A stretch of 64,000 nt of DNA, taken from contig CAVPSB010000016.1 in the NCBI GenBank assembly GCA_963708025.1, positions 288,001 through 352,000 of the forward strand, given 5' to 3'. Shown piece by piece: positions 884 through 13,337 of the stretch. Position 1 is the first letter of the stretch. Every line of letters starts with the position of its first letter. The translations under genes and the position numbers were made by a program. The stretch is from an uncultured Candidatus Rokubacteria bacterium (GTDB lineage: Bacteria; Methylomirabilota; Methylomirabilia; Rokubacteriales; DASRDR01). The notes beneath the pieces were generated by a model. That model was not told where the DNA came from, ran no database searches, and worked only from the letters and a program-made list of their open reading frames with translations.

Positions 884-3235
884 ATGGCCATGTCGGCGAC
901 CGAGCCCCGCGTGCTGGTGGTGGACGACGAGGAAGGCCCCCGCGAGGCCATCCGGATGATCCTCAAGCCGCGCTACCACGTCACCCTGGCGGGGAGCGGC
1001 GAGGAGGTCCTGAACTCGCTCCCCGCCCTCCGTCCCGACGTCATCTTCATGGACGTGAAGATGCCCCGGATCGACGGCGTGCAGCTGCTCGAGCGCGTCA
1101 AGGCGGTCGACCCGCTGGTCGAGGTCGTGATGATCACAGCTTACGCCTCGCTCGACACGGTGCAGCGGGCGATGCGGTTCGGCGCGATGGATTACCTCGT
1201 CAAGCCGTTCGCGCCCAAGGAGCTGGAGGAAGCGGCCGAGCGCGCGCTGGCCCGCCGGCGCGAGCGCTCGGCGGCGCCGGCCCGGGGGCTGACCACGCTC
1301 ATCGGACAGATGCGGGACCTGGCTCGCCGCGGCGAGCCGGCCGCCGGTCAGCTCGAGGGCGCCGACGACCTGCCCGGGCTGCTCCGGGCGATGCTGCGCG
1401 AGGTGCAGCGGGCGACGGGCGCGGTGGCCGCCTCGTTCTTCGGGACCGAGCCGGCCGCGGTCGTGCACTCGGACCTGCCGCCGGGGGCGGCGGAGGCGCT
1501 GGCCAGCTCCTGGAAGGCGGCGCTGGGGAGGGTTCGCGAGCCGCTGTGGTTCCGGCCCGGCGCCGGTCGCTTCCTGCCGTGGCCGGCCGGCCTGGCGCTC
1601 GAGAACGTGGACGTCCGGGGCATCCTGGTGGTGCCGGTCGCCGACGACGGGCTCCCACGCGTCGCCGGCCACCTCGCCCTCTTCCTGAGCCGCTCGGCGT
1701 TGGACGCCCCCCCCGACCTCACGCCCCTCCGTCCGGTCCTCGACCTCATGGTCACCGCCATCCGCACCTCGCTGCTCCTCGCCTCGGCGGCCCGCCAGGC
1801 GACCGAGCAGTCGCTCCGGGCGGTGCAGCGGGAGATCCTGCGCCAGATCTCGGCCGCGGTCCTCGAGGACCCCGCCCTCGACCGGACGCTGGCCGCGATC
1901 ACCGAGCAGCTCCAGCACGGCGCCGGCTACCAGCGGGTTCAGGTGCTGCTCGAGCCGGACGGACCGCCGCCGGCCGACACGCCGGCCCGTGGTGTCTTCG
2001 CGCTCGTCGCCCAGGGCCGCCGGCTCGGACACCTGGTCGTCGAGGCCAGCGGCAGCGCCCGCGTCCTCGACCGCAGCGAGCGCGAGCTGCTCCGCATGTT
2101 CTCGGAGTCCGTCGCGCTCGTCGTGCGCAACGCCAACCTTCACCGGGAGCTGTCTGAAGCCAACACCTTCCTCGGCAACCTGATCCAGTCGGCGGCCGAC
2201 GTGATCATCGCGCTGGATCCCGAGCGCCGGGTGGTCACCTGGAACCCCTCGGCCGAGCGCATCCTGGGCATGCGGCTCGACGAGGTGCGGGACCGCCCGC
2301 TGGCCGAGGTGCTCCCGCCCCCCGTCCTCCTCGAGCTGGAGCCGGTCATGGCGAATCCCCGGGGCAGCCGGACCGTGAGGCTCCGCACCGACGGGGGCGA
2401 GGGGGCCAGCCTCGACCTCACCGTCACCTGCTCGCCGATCCCCTGGGGCGGCCGCGGGGAGGCGGGTCTCCTCCTGGTGGCGAAGGACGTGACCGAGCAG
2501 CGCCGCTGGGAAGAGCAGCTGGCGCGCTCCGAGAAGCTCTCCGCGCTCGGCAAGCTCGCGATGGGGATGGCCCACGACTTCAACAACCTCCTGCAGGCGA
2601 TCCTGGGGCACGCCCAGCTCATCGCCAGCGAGCCGACGCCCGACCGCCTCTCCAAGGGGCTGACGACCATCGAGCAGGCGGTCCGGGACGGCGTGGAGAC
2701 GGTGGGTCGGATCAAGCGCTACGCCCGGCGGGAGAGCGAGAGCAAGCCCGAGCCCGTCGATCTGCGCGACGTCGTGCGCCAGGTGGTGGAGATCGCGTGG
2801 CCCCGCTGGGCCCACGGCGGCCGCACCGGCGCCGCCATCCGCGTCCAGCAGGACCTCCAGCCGGTGCCGCCGGTGTGGGCGCGCGGGGCCGAACTGCGCG
2901 AGGTGTTGATGAACCTGGTCCTGAACGCCGTGGACGCGATGCCGCAGGGCGGGGTCGTCGGGCTGGAGACCCGGCGGGAGGGCGAGTGGGCCATCCTGGT
3001 CGTCTCCGACACCGGGACCGGCATCCCGCCCGATCTGCGGCGCCGGATCTTCGAGCCCTTCTTCACCACCAAGGAGACGGGGACGGGGCTCGGCCTGTCC
3101 ATCGTCTCGGGCATCATCTCCAGCTACGGCGGCACCATCGAGGTGGAGGCGGAACCCGGCCGGGGCACGACCTTCATCATCCGGCTGCCGATCACGAGCG
3201 ACCCACCCATCAACGGCGGCCGCAGCCCGGCCTAG
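884..3235 (+). CDS. Hybrid sensor kinase: N-terminal receiver, GAF-like region, PAS, HisKA, HATPase_c
   Basis: REC VLVVDDE..FMDVKMP..KPF; PAS IIALDPERRVVTWNPSAERILG; H-box MAHDFNNLL; N-box NLVLNAVDAM; DTGTG, FEPFFTTK, GTGLGL. Confidence 0.92.
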   Translation: MAMSATEPRVLVVDDEEGPREAIRMILKPRYHVTLAGSGEEVLNSLPALRPDVIFMDVKMPRIDGVQLLERVKAVDPLVEVVMITAYASLDTVQRAMRFGAMDYLVKPFAPKELEEAAERALARRRERSAAPARGLTTLIGQMRDLARRGEPAAGQLEGADDLPGLLRAMLREVQRATGAVAASFFGTEPAAVVHSDLPPGAAEALASSWKAALGRVREPLWFRPGAGRFLPWPAGLALENVDVRGILVVPVADDGLPRVAGHLALFLSRSALDAPPDLTPLRPVLDLMVTAIRTSLLLASAARQATEQSLRAVQREILRQISAAVLEDPALDRTLAAITEQLQHGAGYQRVQVLLEPDGPPPADTPARGVFALVAQGRRLGHLVVEASGSARVLDRSERELLRMFSESVALVVRNANLHRELSEANTFLGNLIQSAADVIIALDPERRVVTWNPSAERILGMRLDEVRDRPLAEVLPPPVLLELEPVMANPRGSRTVRLRTDGGEGASLDLTVTCSPIPWGGRGEAGLLLVAKDVTEQRRWEEQLARSEKLSALGKLAMGMAHDFNNLLQAILGHAQLIASEPTPDRLSKGLTTIEQAVRDGVETVGRIKRYARRESESKPEPVDLRDVVRQVVEIAWPRWAHGGRTGAAIRVQQDLQPVPPVWARGAELREVLMNLVLNAVDAMPQGGVVGLETRREGEWAILVVSDTGTGIPPDLRRRIFEPFFTTKETGTGLGLSIVSGIISSYGGTIEVEAEPGRGTTFIIRLPITSDPPINGGRSPA

Positions 3236-5271: not shown

Positions 5272-5277
5272 GGCTTC

Positions 5278-5320
5278 AGCATGCCGGCCTCAGCCCTCGA
5301 TTTGCAAGCACTCGGTGCCG
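5278..5320 (-). promoter_or_regulatory. 43-bp direct repeat copy 1 containing sigma70-like TTGCAA-N18-CATGCT; leaderless start of the dehydrogenase
   Basis: 36/43 identical by manual count to 5866-5908; GTG start 6 nt after the -10 hexamer. Confidence 0.6.
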
Positions 5321-5339
5321 AGCTCCTCCGTCGGGCGAG

Positions 5340-5804
5340 CTACGGCAGCCTCGGCACTCCGCCGTCGGCGATCGACTCGCCGTACCACATCCGCGAGACG
5401 CCGGCCCAGTAGGCGCCGGCCTGACACATGGGGCAGGCCCGCGCCGTGCCGTACATCTCGCATCGCGACAGGTCGCGGGTTCCGAGCCGGCGGGCGGCGT
5501 CGCGGATCGCCTGCAGCTCCGCGTGAGCGGTCGGATCGGGGGCGGTGACCACCGCGCTCGCGCCCTCGCCGACGATTCGTCCATCTCGCACGATCACAGC
5601 TCCGTAGGGCTGGTCGCCCCGCTCGATGGCCAGGCGGCGCATCTCGAACGCTCGCCGCATGAACGCTTCGCGAGTCGGCTGGGCGGGCTGCACGATCTCG
5701 GCCTGCGCGTCGTTCGCTGCGCGCGCCGGCCAGACCGAGACCAGCACACCCAGACCAGCGAGCGCGAGCAACGCCTGGCGCCGGGTCTCACATGGGCATT
5801 GCAT
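5340..5804 (-). CDS. Zinc-dependent nucleoside/nucleobase deaminase (cytidine deaminase superfamily) with Tat-like signal peptide
   Basis: PYGAVIV, HAELQAIR, CPMC motifs; N-terminus TRRQALLALAGLGVLVSVWPARA; GAGGAG RBS before ATG 5804. Confidence 0.85.
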   Translation of the reverse strand: MQCPCETRRQALLALAGLGVLVSVWPARAANDAQAEIVQPAQPTREAFMRRAFEMRRLAIERGDQPYGAVIVRDGRIVGEGASAVVTAPDPTAHAELQAIRDAARRLGTRDLSRCEMYGTARACPMCQAGAYWAGVSRMWYGESIADGGVPRLP

Positions 5805-6866: not shown

Positions 6867-7544
6867 GTGCCGCCACCCCGCCGGCCGCCTCCACGCTCCC
6901 CCCGCGGTCCGAGCCGGGGATGGTCGGCCCGGCGGGTGCCGATCCTGGTCGGCGCCCTCGCGGTGGTGGCCGTGGGCTCCTACTGGTGGGCCGGCGCGCC
7001 GCCCGGTCCGCCGCCGCTCGATCCCGGCCGGGACGTCATCGTCTTCCTCGGCGACAGCATTACCTCGGGCCACGGGCTGCCGCTCCCGCTCACCTTCCCG
7101 CATCGGGTCGGGGACAGTCTCGGGGTGGACATCCGGAACGCCGGGATCCCGGGTGACCTCACGGCGGGCGGCCTGGCCCGCCTCGACCGCGACGTCCTGG
7201 CTCACCGGCCGAAGCTGGTGGTCGTGGAGCTCGGGGTGAACGACGCCTTCCGGCGACTACCGGCCGGGCAGACGCTCGGCAACCTGCGGGCGATCGTGCG
7301 GCGGATCCGGCAAGACGGCGCGGGCGTGCTCCTCGTTCACATCGATCCCCGGCCGATCGGGCCCGACAACTACCGCCAGGGGTACAAGGACCTCGCCCGG
7401 GCAGAGGGGACGTGGCTCGTCGAGGACTTCCTGACCGGCGTCGCCCCGGGACTCACCACCGACGGGCTCCACCCCAACGAGGAGGGCCACGCCCGCCTGG
7501 CCGCCAGGCTGGAGCCGGTGCTGCGAGAAATCCTCGCCCGGTGA
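6867..7544 (+). CDS. SGNH/GDSL-family esterase (TesA/arylesterase-like), membrane-anchored
   Basis: FLGDSITSG, NAGIPGD, ELGVND, DGLHPN; true start may be GTG about 6936. Confidence 0.9.
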   Translation: MPPPRRPPPRSPRGPSRGWSARRVPILVGALAVVAVGSYWWAGAPPGPPPLDPGRDVIVFLGDSITSGHGLPLPLTFPHRVGDSLGVDIRNAGIPGDLTAGGLARLDRDVLAHRPKLVVVELGVNDAFRRLPAGQTLGNLRAIVRRIRQDGAGVLLVHIDPRPIGPDNYRQGYKDLARAEGTWLVEDFLTGVAPGLTTDGLHPNEEGHARLAARLEPVLREILAR

Positions 7545-7554
7545 CCGGGCCCGG

Positions 7555-8622
7555 CTACTTGATGCCCTTGATGCGGAGGCGGAGGTTGTTGGGGCTGTCG
7601 GCGAACTGGAGGGCCGCTTCCTGCGTGATCTTCTTCTCCTGGAAGAGCTTGAGGAGCGCCTGGTCGAGCGTCTGGAGCCCGTCGCTGAGCCCCTCCTCGA
7701 TCGCCTGACGGATCGTCTCCAGCTCGCCGCGCCGGATCAGCGCCTGGATCCGCGGCGTGTTCAGCATGATCTCCAGCGCGGCGACGCGGCCCTTGCCGTC
7801 CACCCGCGGCACCAGCCGCTGGGCGATGACCGCCCGGAGCAGCAGCGAGATCTGCATCAGGATGGATTCCCGGACGTCGGGCGTGAAGAAGTTCAGGAGC
7901 CGCTCGACGGCGCTGGTGGCGTTGGTGGCGTGGAGGGTGGAGAGCACGAGGTGGCCCGTCTCGGCCGAGTGGAGGGCGGTCGCCACCGTCTCGCGATCGC
8001 GCAGCTCCCCCACGAAGATCACGTCGGGCGCCTGGCGCAGGGCGTTCTGGAGCGCCACCAGGTAGGACTCGGTGTCGATCCCCACCTCCCGCTGGGAGAT
8101 GACGCTGCGCCGGCGCTCGTGGATGAATTCCACCGGGTCCTCGATCGTCACGATGTGGCCGGGCGCGTTCAGGTTCCGGTGGTGGATCATGGCGGCCACC
8201 GTCGTCGACTTCCCGGCCCCGGTGGCGCCGACGACGAGGATGAGCCCCTGGCGCTCGAGCCCCAGGCTGCCGAGGATCGGCGGCAGATCCAGCGCCTCGA
8301 ACGTCGGCACCTCCGTCTTCACCCGGCGGAGAACCAGGCCCGTCGCGCCGAGCGTCCGGTAGCAGTTCAGGCGGAACCGGCCGTGAGCCTGGTGCACGTA
8401 GGAGAGGTTCGCCTCCCCGGCCGCCTCGAACGCCTTCCGCTGGACCTCGGGCACGAGCGTGATCAGGAGCTTCTGCATGTCGAGCCGGTTCAGGGGCGGG
8501 GCTCCGTCCAGCGGCTTCGAGACGCCGTCGACCTTGAGGGTCGGGGGCGTGCCCTCGATCAGAAAGACGTCGGACGCGTTGGTCGCGACGGCGGTGGCGA
8601 GGATCGGGTCCAGATCGGTCAC
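7555..8622 (-). CDS. pilU: Type IV pilus retraction ATPase, PilU-like
   Basis: Walker A GATGAGKST, TIEDPVEF, LRQAPDVIFVGELRD, GHLVLSTLHAT; lacks AIRNLIRE; directly downstream of pilT. Confidence 0.85.
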   Translation of the reverse strand: MTDLDPILATAVATNASDVFLIEGTPPTLKVDGVSKPLDGAPPLNRLDMQKLLITLVPEVQRKAFEAAGEANLSYVHQAHGRFRLNCYRTLGATGLVLRRVKTEVPTFEALDLPPILGSLGLERQGLILVVGATGAGKSTTVAAMIHHRNLNAPGHIVTIEDPVEFIHERRRSVISQREVGIDTESYLVALQNALRQAPDVIFVGELRDRETVATALHSAETGHLVLSTLHATNATSAVERLLNFFTPDVRESILMQISLLLRAVIAQRLVPRVDGKGRVAALEIMLNTPRIQALIRRGELETIRQAIEEGLSDGLQTLDQALLKLFQEKKITQEAALQFADSPNNLRLRIKGIK

Positions 8623-8635
8623 GGGCGGCGTCCGA

Positions 8636-9721
8636 TCAGCGAGCGGCGGCCGCGGCCGGGGCGGCGCCGCCCAGGGGCGAGGCGGAGCCGACGGAGGTGG
8701 ACTGGAGGATCGAGTCCGCGTACGCCTTGTCCACGCGTCCCTGCATCATGAACGTCTTCAGCGCCTGCTCCAGACTCTGCATCCCGAGGGCGGTGCCGGT
8801 CTGGATGGCCGAGGGCATCTGGTGGGTCTTGCTCTCGCGGATGAGGTTGCGGATCGCCACGGTGGCCACCATGATCTCCAGCGCCGCCACCCGTCCCTTC
8901 TTGTCCTTGGTCGGCAGCAGGAGCTGGGAGATGACGCCCTGCAGGGCCTCGGCCAGCTGCACGCGCACCTGCTGCTGCTGGGCGGGCGGGAACGCGTCGA
9001 TGATCCGGTCGATGGTCTTGGGCGCGCTCTTGGTGTGGAGCGTGGCGAACACCAGGTGACCGGTCTCGGCGGCGGTCAGCGCCAGGCTGATGGTCTCCAG
9101 GTCCCGCATCTCGCCGACCAGGATGACGTCCGGGTCCTCGCGCAGCGCGGCCCGGAGGGCCGAGGAGAACGACTTGGTGTGGGGGCCGATCTCACGCTGG
9201 TTCACCAGGCTGTTCTTGGACTTGTGCACGAACTCGATCGGGTCCTCCAGGGTGATGATGTGCTTCTTCCTCGCCGAGTTGATCAGGTCGATCATGGCGG
9301 CCAGGGTGGTGGACTTGCCGGAGCCGGTGGGGCCGGTCACCAGCACCAGCCCGTTCTCGCGGAGCGCCAGCGTCTGCACGATCTCCGGGAAGTTGAGCTC
9401 CTGGAACGTGCGGATCTGGGTCGGGATGACGCGGAAAACGGCCCCCTCCCCGTTCCGCTGGTTGAACACGTTCACGCGGAAGCGGGCCACCTCGCCCAGC
9501 TCGATGGCGAAGTCCAGATCGCGAGCCTCCTCGAAGAGGCGGCGCTGGTCGTCGTTCAACAGCTCGTAGATCATCCGGTGGACGCCGTCCCGGGTCAGCA
9601 CCTGGGCGTCGATCGGCGTCAGCTCGCCGTGGATGCGCATCATCGGCCGGGACCCCGCCGAGAGGTGGAGGTCGGAAGCGCTCCGCTCCTTGGTCTGGAT
9701 CAGGAGATCCGCGACATCCAT
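8636..9721 (-). CDS. pilT: Type IV pilus retraction ATPase PilT
   Basis: ASDLHL, GPTGSGKSTT, TLEDPIEF, LREDPDVILVGEMRD, GHLVFATLHT, AIRNLIRE signature. Confidence 0.95.
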   Translation of the reverse strand: MDVADLLIQTKERSASDLHLSAGSRPMMRIHGELTPIDAQVLTRDGVHRMIYELLNDDQRRLFEEARDLDFAIELGEVARFRVNVFNQRNGEGAVFRVIPTQIRTFQELNFPEIVQTLALRENGLVLVTGPTGSGKSTTLAAMIDLINSARKKHIITLEDPIEFVHKSKNSLVNQREIGPHTKSFSSALRAALREDPDVILVGEMRDLETISLALTAAETGHLVFATLHTKSAPKTIDRIIDAFPPAQQQQVRVQLAEALQGVISQLLLPTKDKKGRVAALEIMVATVAIRNLIRESKTHQMPSAIQTGTALGMQSLEQALKTFMMQGRVDKAYADSILQSTSVGSASPLGGAAPAAAAAR

Positions 9722-11103
9722 GTCGGTGGCCCCTGTCGGCCCAGTAGCTCGCGACGCAGCTCATCGGTCAAGGCGAGGGCGCTCACCCGGTGGCGGGCGC
9801 CCTGACGGTGGACGCTGGCCAGCCCGGCGGTCGCGCCGAGCAGCGTGACGCGGGGCACGTCGAGGGCCAGCAGGTGGGCCAGCCCGGTGGCGTTGGTGCC
9901 GGCGGCGAGGCCGGCCAGGACGAGCGCCCCCTGCTCGGCGCTGCCGATGGCGGCCAGGCAGAGCGGGTTTCTGCCCAGCTCCTCGAGGACGACGACGTCG
10001 GCCGGCTGGGCCAGGATCGTCGCCGCCTCGTCGGCGAACTCCCCGGGCACCTCGACCTGGACGAAGTCCGGCACCACGTAGGAGACGGCCCGCTCCAGGG
10101 TCACGATCTTCTTGGCCGGCGCCGCCGCCGCCTGGGCCAGGGCGTAGAGCAGCGCGGCCCGGGCCCGCGACTCCCAGCCGGTCACGAAGACGAGCCCGGC
10201 GCCCCCGATCAGGCGCGAGAGGGTCGCCCGGGTGTCGCCGTCGAGGTCGAAGCTCTCGAGCGTGGGCAGCCCCGCGCGGCGCTGCGAGATCTTGACGGTC
10301 ACCGCTTCCCCGTGGATCGTCGGGAAGAACAGGATCTCGAGCTCGACCTCCTGCTGCTCGAGTCGCGTCCGGATGTGCGACTGGCGGGGAGGGCTCTCGC
10401 CGCGCAGCCCGGCCAGGATACGGAACCGCGAGACGACGGGACCGAGGAGGTTCCGGGGCAGGCGCCCCCGCTCCACCAGCCGGCCCTCCACGCGGTCGCG
10501 GACACGCACGTCGGTGGCCATGGGCTCGACGTGGATCTCGGTCGCCTCCTGGCGGAGGGCACCCAGCAGGAGGGCATAGACCTGGGCGACCCCCGTCGGG
10601 TCACCCTCGACGCCGGCCGCGCCGGGGGCCACCTCCGCGTAGCGGACACCGGGCGTCCGGCTGGTCCCCGGGGGAAAGGCCTTGTCGAGCAGGTGGAGCA
10701 CCGTCTCCCGGGAAGCGATCGCGATCGACACCCGGGCGCCGGTGACCCCTTCCAGCTCCACGATGGCCTGCTGGTTGGTCGGATCGGTCAGGATGACCGT
10801 CAGCTCCTCGCCGACCTGCAACACCGGGAACGCCTCGTGTCGCCGCAACACCTCCTCGGGCATGCCGCGGGCGAGGTCGAGATCGACCATCTCGTCCCGG
10901 AACTCGACGTACGGGATGCCCAGGAGCTCCGAGAGAGCCCAGTTCAGCTCGTCGGCGGTCAGGGCGCCCATCTCGATCAGGATCTCGCCGAGCCGCTTGC
11001 CCTCCTGATACTGGATGCGGAGGGCCTCGCGGAGCTGGTCGGGAGAGACGAAGCCCCGCTCCACGAGGATCTCGCCGAGCCGCCGCTTGGCCGGCTGCGT
11101 CAT
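9700..11103 (-). CDS. PilB/GspE-like protein with MshEN c-di-GMP-binding N-terminus and degenerate, probably inactive ATPase domain
   Basis: RLGEILVERGFVSPDQLREALRIQ and RLGEILIEMGALTADELNWALSEL; ATEIHVEP, PTIHGEAVTVKI; Walker A region reads VTGWESRARAA; ATG 11103 overlaps the REC stop (ATGA). Confidence 0.85.
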   Translation of the reverse strand: MTQPAKRRLGEILVERGFVSPDQLREALRIQYQEGKRLGEILIEMGALTADELNWALSELLGIPYVEFRDEMVDLDLARGMPEEVLRRHEAFPVLQVGEELTVILTDPTNQQAIVELEGVTGARVSIAIASRETVLHLLDKAFPPGTSRTPGVRYAEVAPGAAGVEGDPTGVAQVYALLLGALRQEATEIHVEPMATDVRVRDRVEGRLVERGRLPRNLLGPVVSRFRILAGLRGESPPRQSHIRTRLEQQEVELEILFFPTIHGEAVTVKISQRRAGLPTLESFDLDGDTRATLSRLIGGAGLVFVTGWESRARAALLYALAQAAAAPAKKIVTLERAVSYVVPDFVQVEVPGEFADEAATILAQPADVVVLEELGRNPLCLAAIGSAEQGALVLAGLAAGTNATGLAHLLALDVPRVTLLGATAGLASVHRQGARHRVSALALTDELRRELLGRQGPPTWMSRIS

Positions 11104-11501
11104 GCGGGAGCCTCCGCGATCACGCGGCGCACCGTGCGGGTGAGCTGCTCGGGCGAGAAGGGCTTCGTGAGGTGGGCCACCGCGCCCACCCCCGCGCTCA
11201 GCGTCCGGTAGACGGGCTCGGCCTGGCCGGTCAGGACGATGACGGGGATGTCCCGGGTCGCGGGATGTCCGCGCAGGCGCGTGAGCGTCGTGTATCCATC
11301 CATTCGCGGCATCATCACGTCGAGGATGATGAGGCGCGGCGTCGCCCGGCGGGCTTGCTCGGCGACCTCGTCCCCGTCGGTCGCGGTCGCGGTGACGAAG
11401 CCGGCCTCGCGCAGGACCTCGCACACGAAGTCGCGGACCTCCGGATCGTCGTCGGCGACCAGCACCAGGGGCGGCGGCGCGGCGCCGGGCGCGGCCGCCA
11501 T
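11100..11501 (-). CDS. Single-domain response regulator (CheY-like)
   Basis: VLVADDD, ILDVMMPRMDG, IPVIVLTG, LTKPF; start overlaps the upstream TGA (TGATG). Confidence 0.9.
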   Translation of the reverse strand: MAAAPGAAPPPLVLVADDDPEVRDFVCEVLREAGFVTATATDGDEVAEQARRATPRLIILDVMMPRMDGYTTLTRLRGHPATRDIPVIVLTGQAEPVYRTLSAGVGAVAHLTKPFSPEQLTRTVRRVIAEAPA

Positions 11502-11707
11502 CACTGGGCCTCTTCGATGGTCCCGAGGTGATCGAAGCGCACGAAGATCGGCGGGATCCCCACCCGCTCGAGCACCAGGCCGCTCTCCTCGACACCGCTG
11601 AGCAGGCCCTGGACGCTCCACTCCCGGGCGAGCTTCACGTAGACCTCTTTGCCGAGCAGGCTCCCGATGAAGCGAATCGTGGCCGGGGGTCCCGGCGTGA
11701 CACTCAT
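11501..11707 (-). CDS. 68-aa Sm/Hfq-fold-like protein
   Basis: MSVTPGPPATIRFIGSLLGKEVYVKLAREWSVQGLLSGVEESGLVLERVGIPPIFVRFDHLGTIEEAQ: helix, V-x-V-K-L, G, L-V-L and FVR..L..I pattern of Sm1/Sm2; GGAGG upstream. Confidence 0.6.
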   Translation of the reverse strand: MSVTPGPPATIRFIGSLLGKEVYVKLAREWSVQGLLSGVEESGLVLERVGIPPIFVRFDHLGTIEEAQ

Positions 11708-11740
11708 GTGGGATTGCTCACCCCTCCCGTGGCGGATCAC

Positions 11741-11770
11741 ATTCTGGGCCCCCCGGGGGAGCCGAGTCAA
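11741..11770 (-). promoter_or_regulatory. Sigma70-like promoter for the Sm-like/REC/pilB-like/pilT/pilU operon
   Basis: TTGACT-N18-CAGAAT on the minus strand. Confidence 0.5.
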
Positions 11771-11815
11771 CTTTTAGAGAGTCGGAGCGGGCCTCGTGCT
11801 CGGCGAGGAGCAGCA

Positions 11816-11861
11816 TCCGAGCGGCGGGGAGGGAATCGGGGGGTCTTCCAAGACCCCCGAA
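11816..11861 (-). repeat. Post-stop hairpin repeat family 1, copy b
   Basis: Minus strand ttcgggggtcttggaagaccccccgattccctccccgccgctcgga, 5 nt after the YbaK TAG. Confidence 0.75.
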
Positions 11862-11866
11862 GAAAA

Positions 11867-12367
11867 CTAGGGGCGGTCGAGGGCCAGGCCGCGGACGATC
11901 CGGACGCCCGGCAGCCGGCGGAGCACCTCCGGGGCCACCTTGATCTTGCCGTCGCGACCCCCGGTGCCGAGGATCACGTAGTCGAGCCCCGTGATGCGGT
12001 CGTCGACGAAGATCGGGAGGCCATCCGGCAAGCCGAAGACCGTCACGCCGCCCACCTTCATGCCGGTCAGCTCCGCCATTTCCGGGCCGGAGGCGAAGGA
12101 GAGCTTGGCGACGCCCAGCAGGTCCCGCACGGCGTGGTTGACGTCGAGCCGGGTGGTGGCGAGCACGACGCAGGCGGCGTACTGCTTCGGCTCCTTCTTC
12201 GAGGCGACCAGGATCGTGTTGCCGGCGTGGTCGGGGGGATAGCCGTAGCGCTCGCAGAATGCGGCGGTGTCCGCGAACTCGGGATCGATCCGGATCAGCT
12301 CGTAGGGGAGGCCGAGGCGGTCGAGGTCGGCGATCGTCCGCTGCTCGGGATCAGGCTCGGCAGTCAC
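11867..12367 (-). CDS. YbaK/EbsC-family aminoacyl-tRNA deacylase-like protein
   Basis: NTILV, KLSFAS, LTGMKVGGVTVFG, IFVDDRI, LGTGGR; start approximate. Confidence 0.85.
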   Translation of the reverse strand: MTAEPDPEQRTIADLDRLGLPYELIRIDPEFADTAAFCERYGYPPDHAGNTILVASKKEPKQYAACVVLATTRLDVNHAVRDLLGVAKLSFASGPEMAELTGMKVGGVTVFGLPDGLPIFVDDRITGLDYVILGTGGRDGKIKVAPEVLRRLPGVRIVRGLALDRP

Positions 12368-12374
12368 TCCGGTC

Positions 12375-12451
12375 ACTATCCGGCGAAACAGCAACCGCGT
12401 CAAGCCGCTCGCCGCCCCCGATTGACTCCCTACGACGCTCCACCGTACGAT
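12375..12451. promoter_or_regulatory. Divergent sigma70-like promoters for ybaK-like (minus) and nudC (plus)
   Basis: Minus: TTGACG-N17-GATAGT then 7 nt to GTG 12367. Plus: TTGACT(12422)-N18-TACGAT(12446). Confidence 0.6.
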
Positions 12452-12467
12452 CGCGGCGAGCCCTTCC

Positions 12468-13337
12468 ATGGAAAACCCGGCGCTGCTGTCCGTCTACCTC
12501 CCCTTCAACCGGGAGTGCCTGGGCGCCGCCTTCGTCCCTGCCAAGCACGCGACCGCGCCGGCCGAGCGGCGGGGCCGCTGGCTCCTCGTCCAGAACCAGG
12601 GCCTCGTCGTCGTCCCTGAGGCCGAGGGGTTCCAGCTGCCGGAGGGCGAGCTGCCCGCTGGCCTCGACGGCGCCGTCGGATCGCCCCTCTGTCTCGGGAC
12701 CCTCGCCGGCACCCCGTGCTGGGTGGCGGCGCTCGCGCCGGAGGCCACGCTGCCTCCGGGGCTCCAGCGCGAGACGCTGGTGCCGATGCAGGGGACCCGG
12801 CTTCCCGACGAGATCCTCTCGCTGGGCGGGATGGCGATGCAGGCTCTCCACTGGCAGGGCACGAGCGGCTTCTGCCCGCGTTGCGGTGCGCCCACCGAGC
12901 GCATTCCCGGCGAGTGGGGCAAGCGGTGCGGGCGCTGCGCGTACGAGCACTACCCGCACCTCCACCCGTGCGTCATCGTGCTGGTCAAGGACGGCGACCG
13001 GTGTCTCCTCACCCGGAAGGCGGGCTGGACGCCTGGTCGCTACGGGCTGGTGGCCGGCTTCGTCGACAACGGCGAGTCCCTGGAAGGCGCGGCGAGCCGC
13101 GAGGTCAAGGAGGAGGTCGGCGTGGAGGTGACCGACCTCCGCTACGTGGGGAGCCAGAACTGGCCTTTCCCGAGCCAGCTCATGATCGGCTTCGTGGCGC
13201 GGTACGCCGGCGGGGAGCTGTCGGTCGACCGCGAGGAGCTGGAGGACGCGCGCTGGTTCCCGTGTCACGCCCTGCCGAGCCGCCCCTCCCGTCACAGCAT
13301 CGCCGGCTTCATCCTCGACCACTACGCCTGCGAGTGA
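12468..13337 (+). CDS. nudC: NAD(+)/NADH diphosphatase, NAD-cap decapping Nudix hydrolase
   Basis: Zinc ribbon FCPRCG..CGRC..YP; Nudix box AGFVDNGESLEGAASREVKEEVG; SQNWPFPSQLMIG. Confidence 0.92.
   Translation: MENPALLSVYLPFNRECLGAAFVPAKHATAPAERRGRWLLVQNQGLVVVPEAEGFQLPEGELPAGLDGAVGSPLCLGTLAGTPCWVAALAPEATLPPGLQRETLVPMQGTRLPDEILSLGGMAMQALHWQGTSGFCPRCGAPTERIPGEWGKRCGRCAYEHYPHLHPCVIVLVKDGDRCLLTRKAGWTPGRYGLVAGFVDNGESLEGAASREVKEEVGVEVTDLRYVGSQNWPFPSQLMIGFVARYAGGELSVDREELEDARWFPCHALPSRPSRHSIAGFILDHYACE

Follow-up and report, generated by a model that had tools for sequence, protein, structure and literature searches.

A small predicted Sm-fold protein encoded in front of a pilus-ATPase gene cassette in Rokubacteria

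This report concerns a 64,000-nucleotide (nt) window, the whole stretch of DNA that was analysed, from the genome of an uncultured Candidatus Rokubacteria bacterium (genome G000), and in particular a short minus-strand gene whose product is a predicted Sm-fold protein of 68 amino acids (aa; here called the Sm protein). The gene lies directly in front of a cassette of four genes encoding a CheY-like response regulator, a putative PilB-like pseudo-ATPase, the retraction ATPase PilT and a second ATPase of the PilT/PilU family (Table 1). A first-pass annotation, made from the sequence itself, had compared the protein with the non-canonical Hfq of cyanobacteria and proposed an Sm ring repurposed as a protein scaffold for the pilus motor. 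The minus-strand frame 11707..11504 (positions 299504-299707 of contig C16 in G000), followed by TGA, translates to the protein quoted there, and the motifs PATIR, KEVYVKL, VQG, GLVL and IFVRFDHLGTI to which it drew attention are all found in the translated product. The annotation was also right that the open reading frame (ORF) track over-extends the start. The TTG codon of the resulting 89-aa ORF (11770) falls within a conserved -35-like hexamer, and most homologues start at the MS... position; thus, ATG 11707 is the true start.

The Sm ORF is a real gene. A single-sequence search of 5.8 billion proteins revealed 23 proteins at E<=0.01 including the query, the other 22 being 66-87% identical to it, and a profile built from 25 sequences retrieved 97 proteins at E<=0.1. 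Nearly all of the latter (94) are full-length or nearly so, with 56-87% identity; the others comprise a remote protein (42%), a 37-aa fragment and P0097, which is 58% identical over 66% of the query length. A representative library (all-against-all, 50% identity) gave five matches, three of which are true clusters; the other two, long repetitive proteins of 1793 and 774 aa, were taken as spurious. The ratio of nonsynonymous to synonymous substitution rates (dN/dS) was 0.14-0.46 in all 15 pairs of the six genomes compared (55 codons), which indicates purifying selection, and the proportion of G and C at codon positions 1, 2 and 3 is 0.69, 0.43 and 0.90, respectively. A chance ORF within GC-rich DNA could be suspected, as long spurious ORFs are frequent in all six frames of the window and the G000 protein has no Pfam or NCBIfam match. 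Such an origin is extremely improbable in view of the selection and third-position composition just described, the 97 homologues, the confidently predicted fold and the conservation of the promoter-like and Shine-Dalgarno-like elements discussed below. The first-pass annotation had allowed that the ORF might prove unconserved or without any Sm-like match; homologues, purifying selection and Sm-type structural and profile matches were all found.

The assignment to the Sm fold, with the compactness of Hfq, is well supported by the topology of the predicted model and by both structural searches. An AlphaFold2 model based on a 23-row alignment reached a predicted local distance difference test score (pLDDT) of 86.8 and a predicted template modelling score (pTM) of 0.72. 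DSSP assigned to this model a helix at residues 9-16 and strands at 21-26, 31-39, 43-48, 51-57 and 61-66, which is the Sm topology, in which an N-terminal helix precedes a strongly bent antiparallel sheet of five strands. The short loop between the two Sm motifs, on which the first-pass annotation had relied, holds in the model, as strands 3 and 4 are joined by a turn of just two residues. A Foldseek search against the PDB gave five matches at E<=0.001, all of them Hfq chains (Caulobacter 6gwk and Thermotoga 4y91), with template modelling (TM) scores of 0.78-0.80; the best was 6gwk (E 4.6e-4, TM 0.79, root-mean-square deviation (rmsd) 1.6 over 64 columns). The matches listed to rank 50 were mostly Hfq chains, with Synechocystis 3hfo_B at rank 30 (TM 0.78/0.81, rmsd 1.3). 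VIA-align, which is independent of Foldseek, ranked Synechocystis Hfq 3hfo_A first (Z 10.4, rmsd 2.2, 63 residues, 21% identity), and within one Z unit of it were the Hfq proteins of Aquifex (10.4), Caulobacter (10.1) and Thermotoga (9.8) and the SmAP of Halobacterium (9.8). Hfq and SmAP rings head the VIA-align list (Z 9.4-10.4), and in both structural searches the top places go to Hfq, SmAP and LSm chains. The VIA-align list also holds GerQ, CgeA, the C-terminal domain of RimP, YaeO and designed small barrels (Z 7.4-9.0). The AlphaFold model, Foldseek and VIA-align thus agree with the compact Hfq-like geometry that had been read from the sequence. The modelled structure does not appear to single out a cyanobacterial affinity, 3hfo being tied with other Hfq and SmAP structures. 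The Hfq chains to which the model aligns have 63-72 residues and the LSm chains are longer, with 71-98 residues; it also differs from the latter in the two-residue turn linking strands 3 and 4. A homo-oligomeric ring is most likely, as judged from the fold.

By sequence, the Sm protein represents a separate Sm-like family that borders DUF2642 and is a member of neither Hfq family, because the Hfq and Hfq_1 models fail while weak LSM and DUF2642 matches occur. Pfam Hfq (PF17209; cut-off 27 bits) matched neither the Sm protein (E<=1) nor any of 23 relatives (E<=10), nor anything else in the whole G000 genome at E<=1. Similarly, Pfam Hfq_1 (PF21979; cut-off 27 bits), a model that does match in a Synechococcus control genome, gave no match to the Sm protein or the 23 relatives at E<=10; an Hfq_1 match elsewhere in G000 (E 0.887), on another contig and inside a 598-aa frame, is unrelated. 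No match of Pfam LSM (PF01423) in G000 rose above the cut-off, the best (E 0.34) being at another site. Alignment of the family with Escherichia coli Hfq by hhalign was not significant (probability 0.1, E 0.5) and served only to bring residues into register. In a protein-language-model look-up, unnamed clusters came top (0.95) and a cyanobacterial Hfq_1 cluster ranked 16th (0.92), which is no more than a lead. The specific kinship with cyanobacterial Hfq proposed in the first-pass annotation is therefore not borne out: both Hfq models and the hhalign comparison fail, the structural ranking is a tie, and the weak sequence affinities go instead to LSm2, LSm6, SmF and DUF2642.

Against PDB sequences, the family profile matched LSm2 (E 0.0028, 20.4 bits), LSm6 (E 0.03) and SmF, and 18 of the 26 sequences found at E<=10 were Sm or LSm proteins, with no Hfq among them. 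Residues 12-41 of the profile align to residues 5-34 of LSm2, an Sm1-type segment. The sequence profile is thereby significantly linked to solved structures of archaeal and eukaryotic Sm/LSm proteins (LSm2 and LSm6) and to no others. When the 23 relatives were scanned singly at E<=10, DUF150_C was matched by 21, DUF6897 by 16, LSM by 16 (best E 0.0092; all under the Pfam cut-off of 23.4 bits) and DUF2642 by 13 (best E 9.1e-5). DUF2642 (PF10842; cut-off 22.7 bits) is the nearest curated sequence family. Six relatives, picked because some bore a precomputed DUF2642 label, were scored against it and four reached the gathering score (P0047, 27.2 bits; P0063, 26.4; P0087, 26.0; P0046, 23.1), while P0007 scored 12.3 bits, P0053 gave no match and the G000 protein itself had none at E<=10. 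One relative has been named DUF2642 by the Joint Genome Institute. We take DUF2642 to be mainly a Bacillus family within the Sm-like clan; a full-text literature search found nothing on its function.

The RNA-pocket residues of canonical Hfq and Sm proteins appear to be missing or variable in this family. The hhalign register, which is of low confidence, places T10 and S42 opposite Hfq Q8 and F42, and G34 and E40 opposite Hfq G34 and D40. The protein has the same length and loop lengths as canonical Hfq (PF17209) and shares with it G34 and an acidic residue 40, but the proximal-face pocket formed by Q8, F42, K56 and H57 is replaced by T10, S42 and, at the Sm2 site, F55-V56-R57-F58. The YKHA signature is indeed absent, as had been noted at the outset, the corresponding stretch being F55-V56-R57-F58-D59. 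Following the helix, the arginine rim patch of Hfq is replaced by G15-S-L-L-G-K20 (family consensus E-S-L-L-G-K). The C-terminal tail of canonical Hfq is also lacking, as are miaA/hflX-type gene neighbours of the kind seen in the E. coli record. Compared with Sm/LSm proteins, the Asp-x-x-x-Asn of Sm1 becomes E40-E-S-G and the (I/V)-Arg-Gly of Sm2 becomes V56-R57-F58, with no Gly after the Arg; Arg57, the sole Sm2-like feature, is itself replaced in five of 15 distinct lineages (N, A, S, S and T). The residues invariant in all 25 rows are F13, L17, G19, V22, Y23, K25, L26, W30, Q33, G34, L36, G43, G50, G62, T63, E65 and E66. Several basic residues are conserved family-wide, namely K25 (25/25), R35 (24/25), R38 (22/25) and R48 (24/24), and also K/R28, although R35 and R38 are L and G in the G000 copy. 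As a whole, the family is acidic to neutral, with a median isoelectric point (pI) of 5.29 and a median net charge of -1. The G000 copy has the highest dN/dS values of the set against the other genomes (0.23-0.46) and deviates at near-invariant family positions (R35 to L, R38 to G, D29 to E and E15 to G), which suggests that constraint on the gene in G000 is relaxed or shifted.

The link to pilus-motor genes made in the first-pass annotation stands up to comparison. Six genomes and eleven metagenome loci, less a duplicate contig and an identical core, yielded 15 lineages, 14 of them informative, and in 12 of these 14 the Sm gene directly precedes the cassette. In eight lineages it is followed by the response regulator gene and then the rest of the cassette. 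In four, the regulator is gone and the Sm gene stands directly before the PilB-like gene; at two such loci (L057 and L060), the tblastn matches of the Sm and PilB-like proteins meet at one base. In G000, the ATG of the response regulator gene (11501-11499) overlaps the Sm stop codon by 1 nt, the ATG of the PilB-like gene overlaps the stop codon of the regulator gene (ATGA), and the start of pilT sits 22 nt within the PilB-like gene. In the two remaining lineages (G003 and L058), the whole cassette is missing while the Sm gene and its promoter-like element are intact, and the Sm gene now adjoins the YbaK-like gene and an SGNH hydrolase gene that normally lies beyond the PilU-like gene.

Within the cassette, the response regulator has residues D18, D61 and K113 that are invariant in 17 orthologues. 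The protein that follows it falls far below the cut-off of the PilB model TIGR02538 (130.8 bits against 675.65), and comparison with Thermus PilF (6f8l) revealed a degenerate ATPase site: the Walker A motif GPTGSGKS is replaced by GWESRARA, the Asp box EDPVE by ERAVS, the Walker B motif GEIRD by EELGR and the His box TGHLVIATLHT by QGALVLAGLAA. These degenerate motifs are conserved in all 17 orthologues (L017-L033). Its N-terminus carries an intact MshEN motif for c-di-GMP (cyclic dimeric guanosine monophosphate). From these features of its sequence, the PilB-like protein appears to be a conserved pseudo-ATPase sensor, and it looks like a c-di-GMP-sensing regulator of pilus retraction. Its orthologues, with about 42-79% identity, occur across several families of the order, where pilT and a PilU-like gene always come after it and a CheY-like regulator gene usually stands in front. 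Elsewhere, G000 contains three ordinary PilB/GspE paralogues (C16:443672-445012, C31:297415-298716 and C3:28519-29796) and two platform-protein genes, and a pilus or secretion machine is thus considered to be present.

Table 1. Coordinates and supporting evidence of features at the Sm locus (window positions) and of the two loci without the cassette.
Feature	Position	Strand	Evidence
Second PilT/PilU-family ATPase	7555..8622	minus	TIGR01420, 412 bits (cut-off 319)
PilT retraction ATPase	8636..9721	minus	TIGR01420, 485 bits (cut-off 319)
Putative PilB-like pseudo-ATPase with N-terminal MshEN c-di-GMP motif	9700..11103	minus	NF053729, 68.5 bits (cut-off 38)
Single-domain CheY-like response regulator	11100..11501	minus	Pfam Response_reg, E 2e-27
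Sm-fold protein gene, 68 codons plus TGA stop (11503-11501)	11501..11707	minus	Translation, homologues, selection, fold
Shine-Dalgarno-like GGGAGGGG, 13 nt before ATG	11721..11728	minus	Read from sequence
Promoter-like TTGACT-18 nt-CAGAAT, 34 nt upstream of ATG	11741..11770	minus	Sigma-70-like scan and alignment
YbaK-like gene, upstream of the Sm gene	11867-12469	minus	
Cassette-less locus L008 (genome G003)	5276-5524		
Cassette-less locus L058	2329-2496		

The Sm gene probably heads the unit from its own conserved promoter-like element, which lies directly in front of it, and the unit would then be read as a single transcript. The TTGACT/CAGAAT pair is the only sigma-70-like match within 7400-12000 (shuffled sequences gave a mean of 0.1). 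TTGACTC is invariant in all nine aligned upstream regions and CAGAAT is present in eight, the ninth slice having ended early; the flanking columns are unconserved, with a mean column identity of 36%. Both the cassette-less G003 and G002, which lacks the response regulator, retain TTGACTC and CAGAAT, and a promoter function for these boxes is probable from their position and conservation. The stretch CCACGGGAGGG is common to the source locus, L054, L052 and L057 in the upstream alignment. A terminator scan of 7400-12000 found no terminator-like site. A GC-rich inverted repeat, GGGGGTCTT..AAGACCCCC at 11838-11860, directly follows the stop codon of the upstream YbaK-like gene; the scan did not list it because it has no T run, and it may mark a boundary between the YbaK-like gene and the Sm operon. 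No Rfam family matched 11500-11900 at E<=1 or any part of the window at gathering scores, and no riboswitch was found in the Sm leader.

Twenty sequencing runs contain part of the locus, three of which are soil metatranscriptome runs with small shares. One of these (X18) holds two 151-nt contigs that match 10670-10974, in the PilB-like gene, with 0 differences, and contigs of the other two (X19 and X20) match 8132-8381, in the PilU-like gene, with 2 differences in 250 nt. Metatranscriptome contigs overlie parts of the PilB-like, response regulator and PilT/PilU genes and none lies over 11508-11674. Such contigs prove neither transcription nor its absence, DNA carry-over is possible, and no inference on Sm expression is drawn from them. 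At the other side of the cassette, two plus-strand ORFs were noted by eye from their translations, namely a kinase-like ORF (7-873) and, just downstream of it, a large hybrid sensor (884-3235) with receiver, PAS-like and histidine-kinase segments.

The Sm family is confined to six genera of a single Methylomirabilota family, a clade of soil Rokubacteria. Among the 41 nearest relatives searched, the gene is present in six genomes including G000; it occurs in five of 20 genomes of the same family, in none of the 15 genomes of the largest genus and in none of 20 genomes from the other families of the order. In the phylum, it was found in seven of 251 genomes and seven of 68 genera, six of the matches being strong and one weak (G080, E 1.1e-4, inside a 503-aa frame). 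One genome flagged as unpublished (G038) enters these counts solely in the denominator of the 41-genome surveys and probably of the 251-genome survey. Where source names are given, the homologues come from Rokubacteria or Methylomirabilota, with one from Gemmatimonadota, and the genome records read Methylomirabilota and Rokuibacteriota. The G000 assembly is 99.67% complete with 8.18% contamination; the gene sits on a 467-kb contig and has syntenic relatives.

We tentatively favour, at somewhat less than an even chance, the reading that the Sm protein is a ring-forming, protein-binding accessory of pilus-ATPase regulation. The protein would most likely assemble into a homo-oligomeric ring by pairing of the strand 4 and strand 5 edges, as in other Sm proteins. 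Its gene would open a unit of five cistrons encoding the Sm protein, the CheY-like regulator, a PilB paralogue that senses c-di-GMP but is catalytically dead, PilT and PilU, and the Sm protein would be made together with the product of the next cistron, in stoichiometric amounts, since the stop and start codons overlap. The ring could then dock onto the pseudo-ATPase or the hexameric ATPases of the pilus, or else organise them, and extension and retraction of the pilus would thereby become responsive to phosphorylation and c-di-GMP. We infer the ring, its protein partner and any effect on pili, and the proposal in the first-pass annotation of a protein scaffold for the pilus motor, which derives from gene order, is unproven. 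A three-chain complex prediction of the Sm, response regulator and PilB-like proteins scored 0.00 in two runs; as the controls were not folded and the job was unlike the calibration, this result speaks neither for nor against an interaction.

Such a role would be analogous to that of cyanobacterial Hfq, which binds to PilB, the assembly ATPase, at its C-terminal extension and is required for piliation, and unlike that of a canonical RNA chaperone. In the accessible part of one review, cyanobacterial Hfq is stated to bind the pilus ATPase PilB physically and, at the pilus base, is counted among the cyanobacteria-specific type IV pilus factors, its mechanism being unknown (PMC12288463). In the available text of a 2014 review, the Hfq of Synechocystis is apparently uninvolved in riboregulation (PMC4152361), while the accessible portion of a review of PilB cofactors makes no mention of Hfq (PMC11656802). 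Judging by titles and abstracts, those of the listed papers that link Sm-like proteins to PilB concern cyanobacteria, and a full-text literature search retrieved nothing on Hfq or Sm-like proteins in Rokubacteria. Cyanobacterial Hfq (Ssr3341, 3hfo) and the modelled Rokubacteria protein have the same compact Sm fold, and both are without the enterobacterial RNA-binding signature. Both are also associated with a pilus ATPase, the former by physical binding, as the accessible text has it (PMC12288463), and the latter by operon position. Unlike in the cyanobacterial case, the adjacent PilB-like protein in Rokubacteria is a putative Walker-A-dead, c-di-GMP-sensing paralogue and not the assembly motor, and the protein belongs to another phylum (Methylomirabilota), in which its range is very narrow.

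Several observations weigh against a role as pilus-ATPase accessory. The two lineages that have lost the whole cassette retain the Sm gene, and the G003 copy is under purifying selection (dN/dS 0.14-0.31 against the other five genomes). In G003, a genome that is 91% complete, there is no orthologue of the response regulator (best match 40% identical) or of the PilB-like protein (best 29%, E 8.4e-37, compared with 49-79% for orthologues), and the best PilT match is 53% identical. Conversely, the cassette is found without the Sm gene in the largest genus (11 of 15 genomes, about 50% identity, and one further copy that is fragmented) and also in two other families. The approximately 1.1 kb upstream of 13 such cassettes contains no Sm-like ORF (hmmsearch with filters off, best E 0.95), and by eye no other small ORF is shared in front of them. 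A search for longer fused forms found no fusion to a pilus protein; two longer proteins (140 and 340 aa), in which the Sm part is C-terminal, look like over-extended gene calls. As the cassette occurs elsewhere without the Sm gene and the Sm gene persists without the cassette in two lineages, the Sm gene is a lineage-specific addition 5' of an older cassette and is able to outlive it. In addition, an RNA surface could be made up of the conserved basic residues K25, K/R28, R35, R38 and R48. None of the 41 related genomes searched yielded a Pfam Hfq match, and thus an RNA-chaperone niche may be open in this order. The persistence of the Sm gene without the cassette, the independence of the cassette elsewhere, the conserved basic residues and the apparent absence of Hfq from the order are the reasons why a pilus-ATPase adaptor is held at rather less than an even chance.

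The Sm fold is overwhelmingly RNA-binding, and the Sm protein could accordingly be a lineage-specific analogue of Hfq or SmAP that acts in post-transcriptional control through a non-canonical surface, its site before the pilus cassette being either incidental or a reflection of control of that operon's mRNA. The profile matches to LSm2, LSm6 and SmF, the lack of Hfq in G000 and its relatives and of any LSM match over the cut-off in G000, the near-invariance of the basic residues and the survival of the gene, with its own conserved promoter-like element, in two lineages without the cassette would all fit this explanation. We nevertheless regard it as rather doubtful, since a serine (S42) takes the place of the stacking aromatic, loop 3 has no Asn, Arg57 is replaced in a third of the lineages, R35 and R38 are lost in the G000 copy and the median pI is acidic. 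A distribution over seven of 68 genera would also be unusually narrow for a global RNA chaperone, and the coupling to the cassette in 12 of 14 lineages is tight. A small barrel of Sm/SH3 type with a role unrelated to RNA or pili, for example binding of peptides or small molecules, or service as a structural oligomer in the manner of other small barrels of DUF2642 or the spore coat, would share the locus by history. The four chosen relatives that pass the DUF2642 cut-off (23.1-27.2 against 22.7 bits; a family without known function), the GerQ, CgeA, RimP, YaeO and designed barrels in the fold list and, again, the persistence of the Sm gene without the cassette are in keeping with it. Such a barrel is distinctly unlikely, because the Sm gene is directly against the cassette in most lineages, the closest matches in structure, ring-forming chains of Hfq and SmAP, cover 61-66 of the 68 residues and, where the response regulator has been lost, the Sm gene closes up on the PilB-like gene, which history alone can hardly explain.

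On either reading, the protein adds a new family to the Sm-like proteins of bacteria, and its genomic context is new as well. As the host organisms are uncultured, tests must be heterologous. A second, sequence-unrelated Sm-fold protein built into a pilus-ATPase operon of another phylum would suggest that Sm rings are able to serve as general partners of hexameric secretion ATPases. It would also supply a small set of readily expressed proteins with which the mechanism at the pilus base could be studied in vitro: the 68-aa putative ring, the CheY-like regulator, the c-di-GMP-binding pseudo-PilB, PilT and PilU. Should the protein bind RNA instead, the order, whose 41 genomes searched were all without Pfam Hfq, would have its first candidate RNA chaperone. 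A bolder extension of the pilus-ATPase reading, which we consider unlikely but worth stating, is that the type IV pilus motor has twice recruited an Sm ring, here independently of Hfq and outside Cyanobacteria. A lineage-specific Sm-fold protein would have arisen in one Methylomirabilota family and come to stand at the head of the older cassette, where it would act as a six- or seven-fold docking platform for hexameric pilus ATPases. If this is true, secretion ATPases would have come under ring-on-ring control by Sm proteins repeatedly, and the cyanobacterial case would be no oddity.

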